5,986 nt of DNA, from the IMG/VR virus record IMGVR_UViG_2778261446_000004, one strand, 5' to 3'. The notes below the pieces were generated by a model. It saw only the letters and a list, made by a program, of their open reading frames with translations. It was not told where the DNA came from and did not search any database. Shown here in pieces: positions 1-5,684 of this stretch; positions within the stretch are counted from its first letter, which is position 1; each line of letters begins with the position of its first letter. The DNA is from a virus. Taxonomy: Duplodnaviria > Heunggongvirae > Uroviricota > Caudoviricetes. Made by a program: the position numbers and the translations under genes.

Positions 1-132
1 GTCCATTTCCGCGCAGACGATGACGTCACTGCCCGGCTGTATGCGCGAGGTTACCGACTGCGGCCTGAGTTTTTTAAGTGACGTAAAATCGTGTTGAGGC
101 CAACGCCCATAATGCGGGCAGTTGCCCGGCAT
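1..132 (-). CDS. insB: IS1 InsB' (catalytic part of the InsAB' transposase), first 44 codons only; partial at window edge
   Basis: Minus-strand ATG at 130..132 followed by [44 protein letters not shown], which I recognise as the IS1 InsB N-terminus. It is in the -1 frame relative to insA and runs off the window start. Confidence 0.85.
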
Positions 133-326
133 CCAACGCCATTCATGGCCATATCAATGATTTTCTGGTGCGTACCGGGTTGAGAAGCGGTGTAAGTGAA
201 CTGCAGTTGCCATGTTTTACGGCAGTGAGAGCAGAGATAGCGCTGATGTCCGGCAGTGCTTTTGCCGTTACGCACCACCCCGTCAGTAGCTGAACAGGAG
301 GGACAGCTGATAGAAACAGAAGCCAC
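51..326 (-). CDS. insA: IS1 InsA (DNA-binding regulator and N-terminal part of the InsAB' frameshift transposase)
   Basis: The 91-aa translation matches the IS1 InsA protein as I remember it, including the Cys-rich zinc-finger-like N-terminus (CPSCS...CSHC). It starts with GTG (minus strand 324..326) as in IS1, and the stop TAA is at 51..53. Confidence 0.95.
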
Positions 327-358
327 TGGAGCACCTCAAAAACACCATCATACACTAA

Positions 359-381
359 ATCAGTAAGTTGGCAGCATTACC
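359..381 (-). repeat. IS1 terminal inverted repeat (left end, IRL)
   Basis: The reverse complement of 359..381 is GGTAATGCTGCCAACTTACTGAT, the characteristic IS1 end. Sequence from 382 onward (catatacag...) is non-IS1. Confidence 0.85.
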
Positions 382-401
382 CATATACAGATGTACATGG
401 C

Positions 402-432
402 ATAAAAATAACGCGCCCAGCAAAGGCGCGCT
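402..432 (-). terminator. Rho-independent terminator for the small minus-strand ORF
   Basis: GC-rich hairpin (CGCGCC 412..417 pairs with GGCGCG 425..430, 7-nt loop). On the minus strand it is followed by a U-tract, the reverse complement of 402..410 (TATTTTTAT). It begins 5 nt after the ORF stop at 438..440. Confidence 0.6.
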
Positions 433-437
433 CTGCA

Positions 438-614
438 TCAGGTAAGTTGGCTGGAGTCAGTGGTATCCATCCAATCTGGAGCTATTCCCAGACGTTCCGC
501 TATCTCTTCGTTGGTCATGTCTTCAGTTGATAAATCCACCAGACAATCGTTAACTTCAGGATAGTCAGGGGGAAGTAACAGGTATCCCCGCAACGCTTTC
601 AGGTCTTTTTCCAT
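438..614 (-). CDS. Hypothetical small acidic protein (58 aa), function unknown; possible regulator
   Basis: ATG at 612..614 (minus) is preceded by a consensus Shine-Dalgarno AAGGAG (reverse complement of 623..628) with 8-nt spacing. Translation is MEKDLKALRGYLLLPPDYPEVNDCLVDLSTEDMTNEEIAERLGIAPDWMDTTDSSQLT. The ORF-track start (TTG at 671) has no RBS and would run through a palindrome, so the shorter ORF is preferred. The NEEIAERLGI segment resembles the first helix of LuxR/sigma region-4 HTH motifs, but the motif is incomplete. Confidence 0.5.
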   Translation of the reverse strand: MEKDLKALRGYLLLPPDYPEVNDCLVDLSTEDMTNEEIAERLGIAPDWMDTTDSSQLT

Positions 615-645
615 CTTAACACTCCTTGTTAATAGACCGCCGAAC

Positions 646-667
646 GATGGTGCAGATTTGCACCATC
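646..667. promoter_or_regulatory. Perfect palindrome (9-bp arms, 4-bp centre) in the leader/promoter region of the small ORF; candidate operator or 5' UTR hairpin
   Basis: GATGGTGCA (646..654), then GATT, then TGCACCATC (659..667). It lies 32-55 nt upstream of the ATG at 614 on the minus strand and has no adjacent U-tract, so it is not a typical terminator. Confidence 0.35.
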
Positions 668-702
668 CCAAGTGCAGGCAAGCAAACCCACCAGCACAAC
701 AA

Positions 703-731
703 ATTATCTCATACGGTAAAAACGGTGTCGG
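703..731 (-). promoter_or_regulatory. Candidate sigma70 promoter for the small minus-strand ORF
   Basis: On the minus strand: -10 GATAAT (reverse complement of 703..708) and a -35-like CCGACA (reverse complement of 726..731) with a 17-bp spacer. Weak -35, so low confidence. Confidence 0.3.
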
Positions 732-785
732 GCTGTTTCTTTCGCCTAGCTCAACATATCGCCTTAACTACCAGCCATTATCCTT

Positions 786-797
786 GTCTCAATTGGG
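786..797 (+). repeat. 12-bp motif copy A (GTCTCAATTGGG), direct copy of the motif in the inverted repeat below
   Basis: Matches copy B (GTCTCAATAGGG, 825..836) at 11 of 12 positions. It is embedded in a 7-bp inverted repeat CCTTGTC (782..788) / GACAAGG (809..815). Confidence 0.5.
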
Positions 798-824
798 TAT
801 ACCGTAATGACAAGGTGATACAAA

Positions 825-840
825 GTCTCAATAGGGTTGT
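825..840 (+). repeat. Left arm of a perfect 16-bp inverted repeat (motif copy B); candidate recombinase binding half-site
   Basis: GTCTCAATAGGGTTGT at 825..840 is the exact reverse complement of 895..910. The arms enclose 54 bp that contain the recombinase promoter. Confidence 0.6.
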
Positions 841-851
841 ATAGGAACATT

Positions 852-880
852 TTGACTACACAAAATGCATTATGTATCAT
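852..880 (+). promoter_or_regulatory. Candidate sigma70 promoter for the serine recombinase gene
   Basis: -35 TTGACT (852..857), 17-bp spacer, -10 TATCAT (875..880). The predicted start site is about 30 nt upstream of the ATG at 917. The promoter sits entirely between the two inverted-repeat arms. Confidence 0.5.
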
Positions 881-894
881 TTGCACTTATATTC

Positions 895-910
895 ACAACC
901 CTATTGAGAC
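895..910 (-). repeat. Right arm of the perfect 16-bp inverted repeat (motif copy C, inverted)
   Basis: ACAACCCTATTGAGAC at 895..910 is the reverse complement of 825..840. It ends 6 bp before the recombinase start codon. Confidence 0.6.
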
Positions 911-916
911 AATGCA

Positions 917-1543
917 ATGAACGTTAGAATTTACTGCCGAGCATCAACTGAGGGGCAACACGCTGATCGAGCACTTACCAGCCTACGTGAATTTTCAAAA
1001 TCAAAAGGCTGGCAGATTGCAGGAGAGTATATAGAAAATGCTAGCGGGGCGAAGCTTGAGCGCGTAGAGCTTATGCGGCTATTGTCTGAAGCCCAGTCCG
1101 GCGATCTGTTGCTAGTGGAAGCTATAGATCGTCTGAGTCGCCTAGAACATAGCGCATGGGTCGAACTGAAAGATACGCTCAACCGAAAAGGGTTAATCAT
1201 CGTATCAATGGATTTACCAACGAGCTGGCAGATGGTCGAGATGGCAGGCAATGACCTAACCAGCGGCATCCTGAGAGCCGTAAATGCCATGTTGATTGAT
1301 ATCCTTGCCACAATGGCACGGCAGGATTACGAAACACGTCGTAAACGCCAACAGCAAGGCATTGAGCGAGCTAAAAGCGAAGGAATATACATTGGCAGGG
1401 AGAAAAATCAGGAAGCCCGAGAGATCGTTAGAGAGATGTTGGAGCAAGGAGTAAAACCTGAACTCATCATGAAGGCAGCAGGAATCAGCCGAGCGACTTA
1501 CTACCGTATAAAAAGTGAGCTGTCAGTCGTAAAATCAGAATAA
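917..1543 (+). CDS. Small serine recombinase (resolvase/invertase family), 208 aa
   Basis: N-terminal catalytic motif Y6-x-R8-A-S10-T-E-G-Q14 (the canonical YxRVSTxxQ with V replaced by A, nucleophile Ser10 present). Conserved D71-R72-L-S-R75 (DRLSR motif). E/R/Q-rich helix around residues 126-141 (dimerisation helix E). C-terminal HTH-like segment (ELIMKAAGISRATYYRIKSE). Immediately preceded by repeats and its own promoter. Confidence 0.9.
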   Translation: MNVRIYCRASTEGQHADRALTSLREFSKSKGWQIAGEYIENASGAKLERVELMRLLSEAQSGDLLLVEAIDRLSRLEHSAWVELKDTLNRKGLIIVSMDLPTSWQMVEMAGNDLTSGILRAVNAMLIDILATMARQDYETRRKRQQQGIERAKSEGIYIGREKNQEAREIVREMLEQGVKPELIMKAAGISRATYYRIKSELSVVKSE

Positions 1544-1677
1544 CCTTTGAAAGGTCGTCAGGCTTGTTTCATCTGCTAAAAGCCAGCATTTCTGACCATA
1601 ATACCTGGGGGCACCTACTGGGGCACCCACCAAAATCGAAAGACAAATAAGTTATAATTCAATCTGTTAGTTTACTT

Positions 1678-1700
1678 TTCGATTCCTGCAGGGGACACCA
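1678..1700 (+). other. 3'-terminal 23-nt fragment of tRNA-Arg (argW type, ...TTCGATTCCTGCAGGGGACACCA); candidate att core / direct repeat marking an integrative-element junction
   Basis: TTCGATTCCTGCAGGGGACACCA reproduces the T-loop, 3' T-stem, acceptor 3' strand and CCA end of E. coli tRNA-Arg(CCU) as I recall it. The upstream sequence (tttactt...) cannot pair as a T-stem or acceptor stem, so this is not an intact tRNA gene. It lies 161 bp upstream of the integrase start codon. Confidence 0.75.
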
Positions 1701-1861
1701 TTTATCAGTTCGCTCCCATCCGTACCAGTCCGCAAAACCCCCTGAATATCAAGCCTCCCGTAGATTCACAGTTCGTCATGGTTCGCGTCAGATCGTTGAC
1801 AGCCGCACTCCATGACGGGTAAAAAGTGGATAAAATAATTTTACCCACCGGATTTTTACCC

Positions 1862-3019
1862 ATGCTCACCGTTAAGCAGATTGAAGCAGCAAAGCCGAAA
1901 GAAAAACCATACCGTCTTCTCGATGGTAATGGCCTGTACCTTTATGTCCCTGTGTCAGGGAAAAAGGTATGGCAGCTTCGCTACAAGATTGACGGTAAGG
2001 AGAAAATCCTGACCGTAGGAAAATATCCGCTAATGACTTTGCAGGAGGCAAGGGATAAGGCATGGACTGCGAGGAAAGACATCTCGGTTGGCATCGATCC
2101 GGTAAAGGCGAAAAAGTCTTCGTCTAACAACAATTCCTTTAGTGCGATTTACAAGGAATGGTACGAGCACAAGAAGCAAGTATGGTCAGTAGGGTATGCG
2201 ACTGAACTTGCAAAAATGTTTGATGACGACATTTTACCTATCATCGGCGGCCTTGAAATTCAGGATATTGAGCCGATGCAACTGCTGGAAGTAATCCGCA
2301 GATTTGAAGATCGCGGTGCAATGGAGCGAGCAAATAAAGCCCGCAGAAGATGCGGCGAGGTTTTCCGTTACGCTATTGTCACCGGCAGGGCTAAATATAA
2401 CCCGGCACCTGACCTTGCTGACGCCATGAAGGGATACCGCAAGAAGAACTTCCCGTTTCTTCCAGCAGACCATATCCCTGCATTTAACAAAGCACTGACA
2501 ACATTTTCAGGAAGTATCGTATCGCTCATTGCGACCAAAGTTTTACGCTACACAGCCCTAAGAACGAAAGAGCTTCGTTCCATGCTATGGAAGAACGTCG
2601 ATTTTGAAAACAGGATTATCACCATCGACGCCAGTGTAATGAAGGGACGCAAAATTCATGTGGTTCCTATGTCAGACCAGGTAGTTGAACTTCTCACTAC
2701 GCTAAGCTCAATCACCAAACCAGTATCAGAGTTTGTTTTTGCCGGGCGCAACGATAAGAAAAAGCCAATTTGCGAGAACGCTGTACTGCTTGTGATCAAA
2801 CAAATCGGCTATGAAGGTCTGGAAAGCGGTCACGGATTCAGGCATGAATTCAGCACGATTATGAACGAGCACGAATGGCCTGCTGATGCTATTGAAGTGC
2901 AACTGGCACATGCCAACGGCGGATCTGTGCGCGGGATTTACAACCATGCTCAGTATCTCGATAAGCGCAGAGAAATGATGCAGTGGTGGGCGGACTGGAT
3001 TGATGAAAAGGTCTCCTGA
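1862..3019 (+). CDS. intS: P4-family tyrosine integrase, IntS-like (argW-associated prophage integrase), 385 aa
   Basis: The translation from the ATG at 1862 (MLTVKQIEAAKPKEKPYRLLDGNGLYLYVPVSGKKVWQLRY...) matches my recollection of E. coli CPS-53/KpLE1 IntS, and that start gives 385 aa. N-terminal DUF4102-like arm-binding region. C-terminal tyrosine-recombinase catalytic residues are present (conserved Arg in LRYTALRTKELR, HGFRHEF H-x-x-R box, Tyr in GIYNHAQYL). The upstream in-frame ATG at 1826 (ORF-track start) would add 12 residues and is an alternative start. Confidence 0.9.
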   Translation: MLTVKQIEAAKPKEKPYRLLDGNGLYLYVPVSGKKVWQLRYKIDGKEKILTVGKYPLMTLQEARDKAWTARKDISVGIDPVKAKKSSSNNNSFSAIYKEWYEHKKQVWSVGYATELAKMFDDDILPIIGGLEIQDIEPMQLLEVIRRFEDRGAMERANKARRRCGEVFRYAIVTGRAKYNPAPDLADAMKGYRKKNFPFLPADHIPAFNKALTTFSGSIVSLIATKVLRYTALRTKELRSMLWKNVDFENRIITIDASVMKGRKIHVVPMSDQVVELLTTLSSITKPVSEFVFAGRNDKKKPICENAVLLVIKQIGYEGLESGHGFRHEFSTIMNEHEWPADAIEVQLAHANGGSVRGIYNHAQYLDKRREMMQWWADWIDEKVS

Positions 3020-3346
3020 TTATATCGCCGGGTTATCGTCATCGGTGGCCCGGTTAATCAGATGCGTCAGAACAACCTTCACATCCACCTCATCCAAAAC
3101 CTCACCATCCACCGTTATCAGTGCATCACCTCTACGCTTGGCAAAGTGACAACCGCCTGAGTACGAAATCAGGTAGGTGCTTTCCGGCGATGGCTTCATA
3201 CCCTTCTCTATCACAGCAAACCCATGCGATGTCTCAATCACCAGGCTGTTAGCATTTACGCCGCAGATAGTCTCTATGGTTAGCGTGCGTTCAATATAGT
3301 CTTTTGCTGGCGATGGAAAACCCACGGTTGCCTCCACTCTTGACAC
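3020..3346 (-). CDS. UmuD'-like (peptidase S24 / UmuD-MucA family) protein, N-terminally truncated and possibly degenerate
   Basis: Near the N-terminus is GFPSPAKDYIE, matching the UmuD/MucA signature (UmuD: CGFPSPAADYVEQ). Later, RGDALITVDGEV resembles UmuD HGDIVIAAVDGEF. The ORF begins only 7 residues before the GFPSPA motif (UmuD has a 24-residue cleavable arm). I could not align a G-D-S-M catalytic-serine block (the region reads SYSGGCH). GTG start with no Shine-Dalgarno. A LexA box lies 22 bp upstream. Could be a remnant or pseudogene. Confidence 0.4.
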   Translation of the reverse strand: MSRVEATVGFPSPAKDYIERTLTIETICGVNANSLVIETSHGFAVIEKGMKPSPESTYLISYSGGCHFAKRRGDALITVDGEVLDEVDVKVVLTHLINRATDDDNPAI

Positions 3347-3387
3347 TGGATAAAAACACAGTGCAAATACTGTATATCTAACCAGTA
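3340..3387 (+). promoter_or_regulatory. SOS-regulated promoter region: -35 TTGACA (3340..3345) and LexA box TACTGTATATCTAACCAGTA (3368..3387) upstream of the DinI-like gene
   Basis: The box has the CTGT-N8-CCAG arrangement (consensus CTGT-N8-ACAG). Its 3' half TAACCAGTA is identical to the E. coli dinI operator as I recall it (ACCTGTATAAATAACCAGTA). A perfect -35 hexamer TTGACA sits 22 bp upstream of the box; no clear -10 was identified. The box ends 15 bp before the ATG at 3403, and AGAGGGAAG (3390..3398) serves as RBS. Confidence 0.6.
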
Positions 3388-3402
3388 AAGAGGGAAGCTA
3401 AA

Positions 3403-3669
3403 ATGTTTGTGGAATTGGTTTATGACAAGCGCAATGTAGAGGGGCTCGAAGGGGCCAGAGAGATTATCCTGGCAGAGCTGACGAAGCGAGTGCACCAGAT
3501 TTTCCCTGATGCCGAAGTGAGGGTGAAGCCGATGCAGGCGAACGGCCTGAATAGCGATGCAAGTAAAAACGATCGGGAGAAGCTGAACCGCATGCTGGAG
3601 GATATGTTTGAAGAGGCCGATATGTGGCTGGTATCTGAGTTCCCGACCGTTCGCCAAGTTGGGCTGTAA
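3403..3669 (+). CDS. DinI-family protein (DNA-damage-inducible protein I-like), 88 aa
   Basis: Aligns by eye to E. coli DinI across its length: N-terminal M-x-V-E-L, central ELxxRV-x-x-x-FPD-x-E-V-x-V, and C-terminal acidic E-x-AD-x-W-L-VSE (DinI ends ...ESADDWFVSE). Good RBS, upstream LexA box, downstream terminator. Confidence 0.85.
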   Translation: MFVELVYDKRNVEGLEGAREIILAELTKRVHQIFPDAEVRVKPMQANGLNSDASKNDREKLNRMLEDMFEEADMWLVSEFPTVRQVGL

Positions 3670-3673
3670 TAGG

Positions 3674-3712
3674 TAGCGGACTTCTGTTTTTCATGGGAAG
3701 TCCGCTATTTTC
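3674..3712 (+). terminator. Rho-independent terminator after the DinI-like gene
   Basis: 11-bp perfect stem (TAGCGGACTTC 3674..3684 pairs with GAAGTCCGCTA 3697..3707) with a 12-nt loop, followed by TTTT (3708..3711). Starts 4 nt after the stop codon at 3667..3669. Confidence 0.7.
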
Positions 3713-3788
3713 AACGAAATATATGATCGATTCCCTGCTATAACGCATGCTATACTGCGCACACCTTTAACTATTTATTCACTTTATA

Positions 3789-5684
3789 ATGAAACTCGCA
3801 AGCAGTGGATTCAGATTTGACATCAACGGGCTGAGGGCTGTAGCCGTATTGGCCGTTATCATTTTTCACTATAAAGATTCCTGGCTTCCCGGCGGATACG
3901 CGGGTGTGGATGTATTCTTTGTGATATCTGGTTTTTTAATGACCTCTATTATTTTCTCAGGGGTTGAGAAAGGACAATTCAATCTATTTAAATTCTACGC
4001 TGCGAGAATTAAAAGAATCATCCCTGCACTTATCGCTATCTCTATGATAGTTGTTTTTCTTGGCTACTTTCTCATCGAACCATTGAGTTACCAAATGATT
4101 GGTAATCATGTGAAATCAAGCCTTCTTTTTATATCCAATATTGTATATAGAGATGAGGCTGGTTATTTTGATACGGAATCGTCAAGGAAATATTTATTAC
4201 ATACCTGGTCGTTATCTGTCGAATGGCAATTTTATTTAATTTATCCATTACTGGTAATTTTTGCTAAAAGAGCATTATCGTTTAGCAGCTTAAAGAAAAT
4301 TGTATTGGTTGCAGTATTTGTACTCTTTTTCTTGAATATTTACGTCACAAAAACCGACCCAACATCCTCATACTACATGCTTTATTCCAGGGCGTGGGAA
4401 ATGCTTCTTGGTGGTTTGGCTTTCTTATACCCTGCTAAATCGATTTCGAATAGAACAAGAAATTACGGTTCAGTTCTATGTTTGGCGGCTTTAATTGGCA
4501 CATTTTTTATTTTGGACAACCAAGACCCTTGGCCGGGATACTATGCACTTCTTCCTGTAGTTTTGGCTTTCGGCATTATTTTGTTGAATGGAAGCAATGC
4601 TTTACTTTCAAATAAGGTTATGCAGTACATAGGACTAATATCCTATTCTATTTATTTAGTTCACTGGCCCTTGTTGGTTTTTAACAGAACCTTAAACTTT
4701 GGCTTAAATTTTATTTCTTATGTCGTGATTACGTTTGCTATTGCGACATTGATTTACATGACTTTTGAGTCAAAGAGAAGAAGTGTTATCTTTACAGTTG
4801 TTTTGTACTCGATTGCTCTTGGTGTGGCATGGAAAGTTTCAGTTGCAGGCGTAACAAGTCGTGTTAACACGGAGTTTCAGTTAACCAAGCAACAATTCAG
4901 GAATAAATTTGAAGGGCACGCCGGGTTGGGTTCTTATGATAAAGTTGATTATTTTAATTCAACAGAAAATGATTTCGAATACATATTGATTGGTGATAGC
5001 CATGCTCGTCACTACTTCCAGTATATTAATAAAAATGAAAAAGTTGCCAGCCTTGCTTTAGACGGATGCAAATCTACAGAAAATTTCTATCCGACATCCC
5101 CATCACCTTTGATGATAAAACTATGTAAAGCTCGTTATAAAATGCAGGTAGATTTCATCAATGCGCACCCAGGAAAACCAGTAATATTATCACAAAGTGG
5201 TTTCGGGGTTTTACCGAGTTCATTTTCACGTGGCACTGATGAACCTATCGGTGATGGTCATGATTTCAATTCATTGGGTTTAGAAGAACTACATCTATTT
5301 ATTAATCGGATTAAAGACACTAAACATAAACTGTTTGTTATAGGTGACACGCAAGGGAGTGAAGGCGTTATGTTTGAATGCCTTGCTAAAGAAAATCTGC
5401 CAATCAATAGAATATTCAATGTAACATCCTGCCCTATAAAACAGGAATACAAACCTAAAAAATACAATCAAATTCTTGAGGCTAACGCTGAGAAGCTTGG
5501 GTATACATATATCAGCCCTGATCCTGCGCTATGTGATGGAAAAGAATGTATAATAGTTAAAGATGGTATGCCTATGTATACTGATAGTAGCCATCTTTCA
5601 AAGCTGGCCTCTGAAATTGTAGGGGACTATGTATTTAGAGAGATAAAGAAACAAGAAATTTCAACAAGCAATAAAGATAATTAA
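3789..5684 (+). CDS. Acyltransferase-3 / SGNH fusion protein (OafA/OatA-type), probable O-antigen or surface-carbohydrate O-acetyltransferase, 631 aa
   Basis: N-terminal AT3 signature (FRFDINGLRAVAVLAVIIFH, the R-x-D-x-L-R-x-x-A motif with a conserved His). About 350 aa of repeated hydrophobic segments, consistent with a multi-pass membrane domain. C-terminal soluble domain carries an SGNH block-I GDSH motif (YILIGDSHARHYF). The coding sequence looks AT-rich by eye compared with the integrase; GC content was not computed. No Shine-Dalgarno upstream of the ATG. Confidence 0.85.
   Translation: MKLASSGFRFDINGLRAVAVLAVIIFHYKDSWLPGGYAGVDVFFVISGFLMTSIIFSGVEKGQFNLFKFYAARIKRIIPALIAISMIVVFLGYFLIEPLSYQMIGNHVKSSLLFISNIVYRDEAGYFDTESSRKYLLHTWSLSVEWQFYLIYPLLVIFAKRALSFSSLKKIVLVAVFVLFFLNIYVTKTDPTSSYYMLYSRAWEMLLGGLAFLYPAKSISNRTRNYGSVLCLAALIGTFFILDNQDPWPGYYALLPVVLAFGIILLNGSNALLSNKVMQYIGLISYSIYLVHWPLLVFNRTLNFGLNFISYVVITFAIATLIYMTFESKRRSVIFTVVLYSIALGVAWKVSVAGVTSRVNTEFQLTKQQFRNKFEGHAGLGSYDKVDYFNSTENDFEYILIGDSHARHYFQYINKNEKVASLALDGCKSTENFYPTSPSPLMIKLCKARYKMQVDFINAHPGKPVILSQSGFGVLPSSFSRGTDEPIGDGHDFNSLGLEELHLFINRIKDTKHKLFVIGDTQGSEGVMFECLAKENLPINRIFNVTSCPIKQEYKPKKYNQILEANAEKLGYTYISPDPALCDGKECIIVKDGMPMYTDSSHLSKLASEIVGDYVFREIKKQEISTSNKDN

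Follow-up and report, generated by a model that had tools for sequence, protein, structure and literature searches.

A minimal HumD/UmuD'-like gene with predicted LexA boxes in an IntS-type prophage of Escherichia coli

Introduction

Orphan, phage-borne analogues of UmuD' that are made in a pre-activated form are already known. HumD of phage P1 was described as an already activated, shorter UmuD (PMC7092418); the P1 GenBank record annotated it as functionally complementing UmuD', and it displayed 43% identity to UmuD over 119 residues, with equivalents of both Ser and Lys kept. Replacement of UmuD' in UmuC-dependent SOS mutagenesis is known for P1 HumD only. The protein family phrog_3469 was likewise catalogued, and its members have been called "UmuD-like" since the mEp phage genomes: mEp390 gp26 (YP_007112443), encoded between dinI and attP/int, was annotated as "UmuD-like protein ... 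similar to HumD". No paper was found on the missing active-site loop, the near-universal LexA boxes or the operon partner of phrog_3469. The present work dealt with a phrog_3469 gene located in a 5,986-nucleotide (nt) stretch of DNA (IMG/VR record IMGVR_UViG_2778261446_000004; hereafter the window), which was part of the E. coli chromosome, where an IntS-type prophage inserted beside tRNA-Arg/yfdC has its integrase end.

The identity of this gene (minus strand, 3020..3325), an accessory gene of the prophage, and its SOS control, taken by themselves, were in little doubt. As a whole, the gene was read as encoding an SOS-induced, pre-activated protein of the HumD type that has no catalytic activity and whose probable partner is host UmuC, a reading that the evidence favored by a modest degree; the UmuC-partnering step, graded separately, fell a little short of even chances.

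Family membership and reading frame

The window protein matched phrog_3469 ("UmuD-like protein", 106 positions) over its full length (E 1.7e-35, 122 bits, residues 1-100 on positions 1-105) and shared 46% identity with mEp390 gp26 by tblastn. Its relatives numbered 35 by sequence search and 2095 at E<=1e-3 by profile search, and an exhaustive HMMER scan of 1.84 billion representatives gave 315 clusters at 50% identity; the top 120 profile relatives were nearly all 105-109 amino acids (aa) long and had no Pfam domain, the family norm being 106 aa. Judged from the PHROG match and the 2095 relatives, the open reading frame (ORF) is a genuine gene, far beyond chance. The hosts were Enterobacterales (Escherichia, Citrobacter, Pseudocitrobacter, Enterobacter, Klebsiella, Raoultella, Kluyvera, Leclercia, Pantoea, Erwinia, and others), and 56 records of sequenced temperate phages also carried a phrog_3469 gene, which in P22-like Enterobacter and Klebsiella phages directly preceded the terminase genes.

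The NCBIfam HumD and UmuD models matched only the first 26-43 residues of the window protein, far under their cut-offs; a 127-aa HumD-type protein that adjoins dinI in another E. coli prophage scored 180 bits on the HumD model NF051876. Pfam peptidase S24 matched one of 117 family members, at E 0.17, and the other 116 had no Pfam match. By these scores, the window protein belongs to phrog_3469 and lies outside both the curated HumD family, whose cut-off it did not reach, and peptidase family S24. PADLOC defence models gave no match for the protein, and Rfam found nothing in the whole window, which left no RNA-gene explanation.

The longest ORF at this site had 108 codons (minus strand, 3346..3020) with GFPSPA from codon 9, and the first-pass annotation, working from that ORF, had the protein start seven residues before GFPSPA, near the UmuD' boundary. 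The boundary start held, but the seven-residue extension was an artefact of the longest-ORF choice: the coding sequence of the 101-aa minimal HumD/UmuD'-like protein spanned 3020..3325 on the minus strand (GTG 3323-3325, TAA 3020-3022), and GTG 3344-3346 is almost certainly not the start, so that the 5' end had been drawn 21 nt too long. This was indicated by the following: (i) the identical gene was annotated by RefSeq/PGAP as 306 nt, equal to window 3020-3325, with the product "hypothetical protein"; (ii) the codon at 3323-3325, GTG in the window, was ATG in relatives, Met being first in 116 of 116 family proteins and each residue of the next G-F-P-S-P-A being kept in 102-109 of them; (iii) a Shine-Dalgarno sequence GGAGG (minus strand, 3331..3335), read directly from the sequence, stood 5 nt before GTG 3325, and GGAGG/GAGG occurred at the same position in relatives too; and (iv) upstream of the true start codon the sequences of relatives were unrelated, the in-frame extension 3326..3346 (minus strand) being unconserved as protein and most likely a 5' untranslated region that contains the Shine-Dalgarno sequence. 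GTG 3344-3346 did overlap TTGACA at 3340-3345 and did lack a Shine-Dalgarno sequence, as had been noted; since the start had been mis-assigned, the arguments for decay drawn from this GTG, from the lack of a ribosome-binding site and from the overlap with the -35 hexamer fell with it.

From its true start, the protein began with Met followed by a Gly equivalent to UmuD residue 25, the first residue of UmuD'. Codons 2-12 (minus strand, 3290..3322) encoded the N-terminal arm GFPSPAKDYIE, which corresponded to UmuD 25-35 and was nearly invariant in the family, and the gene ended with the C-terminal acidic tail DDDNPAI (minus strand, 3023..3043), for which the family motif was D-D-[DE]-x-P-[VA]-[IMV]-COOH.

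Loss of the active-site loop

In a MAFFT alignment with UmuD, P1 HumD and N15 gp26, the window ORF and every family member displayed a deletion of the 12 residues UmuD 58-69 (GDSMIDGGISDG, with Ser60); the earlier remark that no G-D-S-M block could be found was thereby confirmed, none being present anywhere in the ORF or in any family member aligned. The junction at the missing nucleophile loop lay between S33 and H34 (minus strand, 3224..3229), as placed by MAFFT and by hhalign against the HumD-type protein, and the multiple alignment displayed a second family deletion of 6 residues (UmuD 101-106). In the alignment, Lys63 was no more than one position away from UmuD Lys97, and that position varied among K, R, I, L and V across the family. 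There was no Ala/Cys-Gly cleavage site with an N-terminal segment, the protein beginning at the Gly. As the whole Ser60 loop was lost, self-cleavage would be neither possible nor needed, and on the aligned sequences the absence of the Ser block characterizes the family as a whole and is no damage peculiar to the window copy. In N15 gp26 and the 127-aa E. coli HumD-type protein, the Ser position was occupied by Thr. FAKRRGDALIT, proposed by a HMMER sub-alignment (domain 2) as a displaced SGDSMI block, was rejected for its E of 96 and its conflict with profile and structural alignments.

The relation of the protein body to UmuD and HumD depended on the comparison used. BLASTP against P1 HumD aligned the first 18 residues only, and hhalign against UmuD alone aligned 20 columns only; the family profile aligned to the 127-aa HumD-type protein by hhalign with a probability of 98.3% (E 2e-14, 101 columns), and body-only profiles, with the arm, first helix and tail cut on both sides, matched UmuD/HumD bodies at E 1.8e-5 over 56 columns. 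The homology of the body thus became visible with a HumD-type target and with body-only profiles. The acidic C-terminal tail was common to the family, P1 HumD (EFDDCPVI) and N15 gp26 and was absent from UmuD; because the tail is shared with HumD and not with UmuD, the family is best placed in the HumD lineage, as a branch that has been trimmed. A separate case, from the representative search, was P0134 (141 aa), in which a UmuD-type N-terminal pro-segment (..FIRPAELREIIALTLFSDSMQC/GF..) was joined to a minimal-HumD body that lacked the Ser loop; such a protein suggests recombination of umuD with a phrog_3469 gene at the shared GFPSPA-coding motif, or else an assembly chimera.

Predicted structure

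An AlphaFold2 model built from 117 sequences (predicted local distance difference test score, pLDDT, 69.7; predicted template modeling score, pTM, 0.51) superseded an earlier 19-sequence model (pLDDT 65.8). It displayed one short helix (residues 17-21), which matched UmuD 39-44 in position, along with six strands of at least 3 residues out of seven core strands, the seventh being a two-residue fragment at 76-77, where the deletion of the window allele (see below) falls and shortens it; the Ser loop was replaced by a tight hairpin, ETS-HG. The top four Foldseek hits were UmuD'/UmuD with template modeling scores of about 0.5, and they included 1umu, 1ay9 and UmuD on RecA (8gmt). The modeled protein retains the LexA/UmuD' beta-barrel (UmuD'/HumD) fold. 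An isolated GFPSPA match with no fold conservation behind it, named in the first-pass annotation as a refuting outcome, is what the 18-residue BLASTP alignment seems to show, but the profile comparisons and the structure model contradicted it.

Control region and divergent dinI

A 77-bp region separated the UmuD'-like gene from the divergent DinI-family gene (plus strand, 3403..3669; 88 aa; Pfam DinI, 2.8e-23; phrog_189 "RecA filament binding protein DinI") and contained two CTG-N10-CAG sites: (i) the LexA box proximal to the UmuD'-like gene, CACTGGATAAAAACACAGTG (3344..3363; 19.2 bits), which starts 38 nt before the start codon, and (ii) the LexA box proximal to dinI, TACTGTATATCTAACCAGTA (3368..3387; 24.5 bits), 15 nt before the dinI ATG. 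For scoring, a position weight matrix was derived from 18 literature E. coli LexA boxes; the next best LexA-like site in the window had 7.2 bits, and the maximum over 300 shuffles was 17.1.

The corresponding distances were -39 for P1 humD, whose upstream box was annotated as a LexA binding site in the P1 GenBank record, and -34 for N15 gene 26. Among family loci, about 28 had a box 34-63 nt upstream of the gene, about 26 besides P1/N15 having theirs at -34 to -43 with 17-27 bits; in the operons with a further gene in front (see below), 49 of 54 displayed a box of 19.6-28.7 bits located 35-44 nt upstream. By this scoring, nearly every phrog_3469 member is SOS-boxed. The dinI-proximal box was conserved in the dinI/HumD-type modules of L003, L010, L011, L065 and L066, and the control region of the window and the one in the dinI/127-aa HumD module shared about 85% identity. 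From these matches, we infer that LexA would control both divergent genes.

Compared with its relatives, the window allele had GC in place of AT at 3363..3364 within overlapping putative -10 hexamers (alignment of six intergenic regions), which relative to the five others changed TATAAA to TGCAAA for dinI and TATACT to TGCACT for the UmuD'-like gene. The promoter hexamers were assigned by eye; a consensus promoter/terminator scan of 2950-3800 found no site. The GC at 3363-3364 also touches the first base of the proximal LexA box.

SOS control together with the predicted fold bears on a highly improbable explanation, namely a LexA-controlled antirepressor, in which an S24-fold protein binds the C-terminal domain of the prophage repressor and triggers induction, like Tum of phage 186 or GfoA/GftA of Gifsy. 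Small genes of enterobacterial prophages that are linked to dinI and controlled by LexA have been shown to be antirepressors (PMC3121763), and the fold predicted here is the oligomerisation fold of the C-terminal domains of CI and LexA. An antirepressor would, however, be expected to vary and to track immunity, and the arm and tail hardly varied among lambdoid, P22-like and IntS-type prophages from many genera; moreover, the arm is the UmuD' arm, common to bona fide polymerase subunits, and its conservation argues for a host-side partner and not for a phage-specific repressor. GfoA/GftA and Tum are not known to be related to phrog_3469.

Gene neighborhoods across the family

No UmuC homologue was found within 3 kb of the gene in any of about 88 related loci; the phrog_3469 gene was always an orphan, like P1 HumD. 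A divergent dinI was present in about a dozen loci. In 54 of the about 88, the gene was the second cistron behind a conserved 79-aa phrog_3893 protein, with stop and start abutting or overlapping (for example, the 79-aa genes at L005:2762-2998 and L056:2762-2998, both on the plus strand). This 79-aa protein had no match in Pfam, NCBIfam, PDB chains or PADLOC and no similarity to DinI or UmuC, and its gene was not found in the window or in a 16.9-kb homologous locus. Three further observations were made: (i) RefSeq annotated an opposite-strand ORF in place of the 79-aa gene in mEp390; (ii) the database protein P0173 (187 aa) looks like the 79-aa protein and a minimal HumD fused together, probably through a frameshift; and (iii) a SRAP/YedK-family (SOS response-associated peptidase) gene lay convergent just downstream in six loci, for example, L039:3328-4068 on the minus strand.

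A polymerase-free neighborhood of this kind would also suit an SOS modulator or decoy, to which appreciable but minor weight was given: a dead UmuD' mimic would titrate a UmuD/UmuD' partner rather than activate polymerase V (pol V), whether by forming inactive UmuD/UmuD' heterodimers, by occupying the RecA-filament groove that docks UmuD, LexA and CI, or by placing its acidic tip at SSB-tail sites, and host SOS mutagenesis or cleavage would be dampened or re-timed during prophage induction, together with DinI. It is consistent with (i) the pairing of the gene with the RecA-filament binder DinI under shared LexA control; (ii) strong conservation in the arm and tail only, the globular body being trimmed; (iii) the binding of UmuD itself to the RecA filament, PDB 8gmt being among the top fold hits; (iv) the operons with phrog_3893 in most relatives and the absence of a polymerase link; and (v) the resemblance of the tail motif D-D-[DE]-x-P-[VA]-[IMV] (DDYPF in some members) to the SSB tip DFDDDIPF. 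The closest characterised relative, P1 HumD, was nevertheless annotated as complementing UmuD', not as inhibiting it, and the SSB-tail resemblance is a short motif that could be coincidence. As an observation in its own right, the tail (..SDDYPF in some members, ..EFDDCPVI in P1 HumD) might mimic the C-terminal tip of SSB, ..DFDDDIPF (1eqq_A); UmuD had no such tail.

A wider proposal, rather doubtful in our estimate, joins these elements: phrog_3469, instead of serving as a spare pol V subunit, would constitute with the 79-aa phrog_3893 protein an undescribed, widespread LexA-controlled two-gene SOS module of Enterobacterales temperate phages, in which the invariant UmuD' arm and the SSB-tip-like tail of the dead UmuD'-fold protein serve as decoys that rewire host RecA/SSB/UmuDC interactions during induction, the window being a variant in which the divergent DinI replaces the 79-aa partner.

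The window allele and the question of decay

Compared with the family norm, the window allele displayed two changes within the protein besides its GTG start. Relatives carried two tandem 15-nt units (GEVLE/GEVLD), and codon-level comparison revealed a single copy (GEVLD; minus strand, 3092..3106) in the window, amounting to an in-frame loss of 5 aa that otherwise occurred only in cluster P0001. A Gly-to-Val change gave V84 (GTT; minus strand, 3074..3076); at least 90% of family members retained this glycine, which lined up with UmuD Gly129. The allele was present in 3 of 5426 complete E. coli genomes.

Seven close copies, taken from E. coli, Pseudocitrobacter and Citrobacter, gave pairwise ratios of nonsynonymous to synonymous substitution rates (dN/dS) of 0.06-0.18, those of the window against the others being 0.11-0.18, and the terminal branch of the window allele had 3 nonsynonymous (start codon included) and 4 synonymous unique changes. 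Counted in this way, the changes on the terminal branch do not indicate relaxed selection.

It is against these data that the decayed remnant of the first-pass annotation has to be judged, that is, a functionless window copy heading to a pseudogene. A weaker argument for it, which that annotation did not make, lies in the change from ATG to GTG, the 15-nt deletion, the Gly-to-Val change and the AT-to-GC change in the putative shared -10, although none of them breaks the gene; the rarity of the allele, which was limited to those three genomes, with unannotated fragments only in about 108 others, would also suit such a copy. The frame was nonetheless intact and the deletion was in frame, between tandem repeats; a strong Shine-Dalgarno sequence at 5 nt and both LexA boxes were in place; dN/dS of the window copy was no higher than that among relatives; and the missing Ser block was common to the whole family. 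Decay is therefore considered improbable, and the remnant claim was not sustained. The comparison with relatives, suggested earlier as a way of detecting an internal deletion or frameshift, did reveal the 5-aa in-frame deletion, but the absence of the Ser block proved to be family-wide and the frame unbroken. Sequence comparison gave no clear sign of pseudogenisation, and the window copy appears to be an intact, possibly attenuated allele of a functional family.

True remnants do exist, unlike the window copy. An unannotated fragment of about 144 nt, 78% identical to the middle of the gene, occurred in about 108 other complete E. coli genomes, of which many belonged to O26 or other enterohemorrhagic E. 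coli, and several records of Shiga toxin (Stx)-converting phages end in a C-terminal fragment, likewise unannotated, that is of the 127-aa HumD type.

Proposed function

The other possibility raised in the first-pass annotation, a UmuD' analogue that is pre-activated and cannot be cleaved, for which P1 HumD was the precedent, agreed with the start at the UmuD' boundary, the retention of arm, fold and HumD tail, and the absence of the nucleophile loop; it was further supported by the LexA box at the distance seen in P1 humD and N15, the lack of a nearby umuC and purifying selection. For an SOS-induced HumD-type protein of this kind, the following course would apply. LexA would keep the UmuD'-like gene and dinI off in an undamaged lysogen, and both would be derepressed upon DNA damage; the protein, probably a dimer and immediately "activated", would engage host UmuC and would supply or adjust translesion synthesis of the pol V type with no need to wait until UmuD is processed. 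Engineered UmuD' is said, after the work of Nohmi et al. in 1988, to dispense with Ser60 for mutagenesis. Speculatively, the divergent DinI may meanwhile restrain host UmuD processing; DinI is a RecA-filament binder, and its exact role is unsettled (PMC3121763).

Several points weigh against this reading: (i) Pfam gave no match for the window protein, peptidase S24 (PF00717) included, and NCBIfam NF051876 (HumD, equivalog) gave 23.4 bits against a cut-off of 120, over the first 26 profile positions only; (ii) by sequence, only the N-terminal arm aligned to UmuD, the rest being undetectable in pairwise comparison; (iii) the confidence of the structure model was moderate; (iv) P1 HumD was longer than the protein by 28 residues, and UmuC binding may therefore be lost; (v) most relatives were co-operonic with a 79-aa protein absent here, so the real partner may not be UmuC; (vi) the beta-hairpin deletion, the Gly-to-Val change and the weakened putative -10 could make the allele less active than the norm; and (vii) the function of phrog_3469 members, UmuC partnering included, is one that we infer.

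Prophage surroundings

The 901-nt region around the gene was found in three complete genomes at 99.9-100% identity. The gene order across the window was IS1, a serine recombinase gene (917-1543), intS, the UmuD'-like gene, the DinI-family gene, an acyltransferase gene, and tail-fibre assembly and tail genes. The IntS-type prophage integrase gene intS (plus strand, 1826..3019) was convergent to the UmuD'-like gene, and the two stops abutted (TGA 3017-3019 and TAA 3020-3022) with neither a spacer nor a terminator-like hairpin between them, an arrangement that was the same in L004. Just after dinI, the acyltransferase gene (plus strand, 3789-5684) encoded a 631-aa AT3+SGNH protein of OafA/Oac-like architecture; related loci had GtrA/GtrB-type or other acyltransferase genes at this place, and the SOS module therefore appears to be embedded among probable O-antigen-modifying lysogenic-conversion genes.

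L001:835-8120, which includes window 1-3019, contained two IntS-type integrase genes, 98% identical, in tandem downstream of tRNA-Arg, and between them an O-antigen polymerase gene, a hypothetical gene, IS1 and the serine recombinase gene; the tandem looks like an island and a prophage stacked at one att site.

Comparison with known systems

With this analysis, the status of a RefSeq "hypothetical protein" is settled: its gene is intact, carries SOS boxes and belongs to a conserved phage family that descends from HumD/UmuD'. The family displays how far the UmuD' scaffold can be trimmed, the whole active-site loop being gone and the arm and the HumD tail remaining nearly invariant; this near-invariance despite trimming points to the arm and tail as functional contacts. 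If the protein does load on host UmuC, lysogens would obtain pol V-type mutagenesis without the delay of RecA-dependent UmuD processing, which would matter in Enterobacterales both for the supply of mutations and for mutagenesis induced by antibiotics. The repeated pairing with the 79-aa phrog_3893 protein in one operon is a concrete lead.

In its working, the window protein would most resemble P1 HumD. P1 HumD and N15 gp26 shared with the window gene the M-GFPSPA start, the orphan state, a LexA box 34-39 nt upstream, a tail of the form ..DDxPVI and carriage by temperate phages, and in some prophages the HumD type likewise had a divergent dinI adjoining, with the control region 85% identical to that of the window. 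The two groups differed in length (101-106 aa in phrog_3469 and 127-129 aa in HumD), the 12-residue Ser loop and 6 further residues being absent from phrog_3469; also, P1 HumD has been genetically tested, whereas phrog_3469 is known from sequence comparison. E. coli UmuD' (PDB 1umu, 1ay9) had in common with the family the arm GFPSPAxDYVE and LexA control, but phrog_3469 would be made directly without cleavage and displayed no Ser60 loop, an unconserved Lys97 position, an acidic tail and no umuC operon.

Within phrog_3469, the window allele differed from the norm in being 5 residues shorter and in its GTG start, V84 and changed putative -10; compared with mEp390 and most members, in which the 79-aa phrog_3893 gene comes first, the window had its LexA box directly upstream of the gene. 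The C-terminal domains of LexA, lambda CI and 186 CI have the same fold as that predicted here, whereas phrog_3469, unlike these S24 proteins, contained no DNA-binding domain, cleavage site, Ser-Lys dyad or Pfam S24 match. Compared by description, 186 Tum and Gifsy GfoA/GftA resembled the window gene as small, LexA-controlled, dinI-linked prophage genes.

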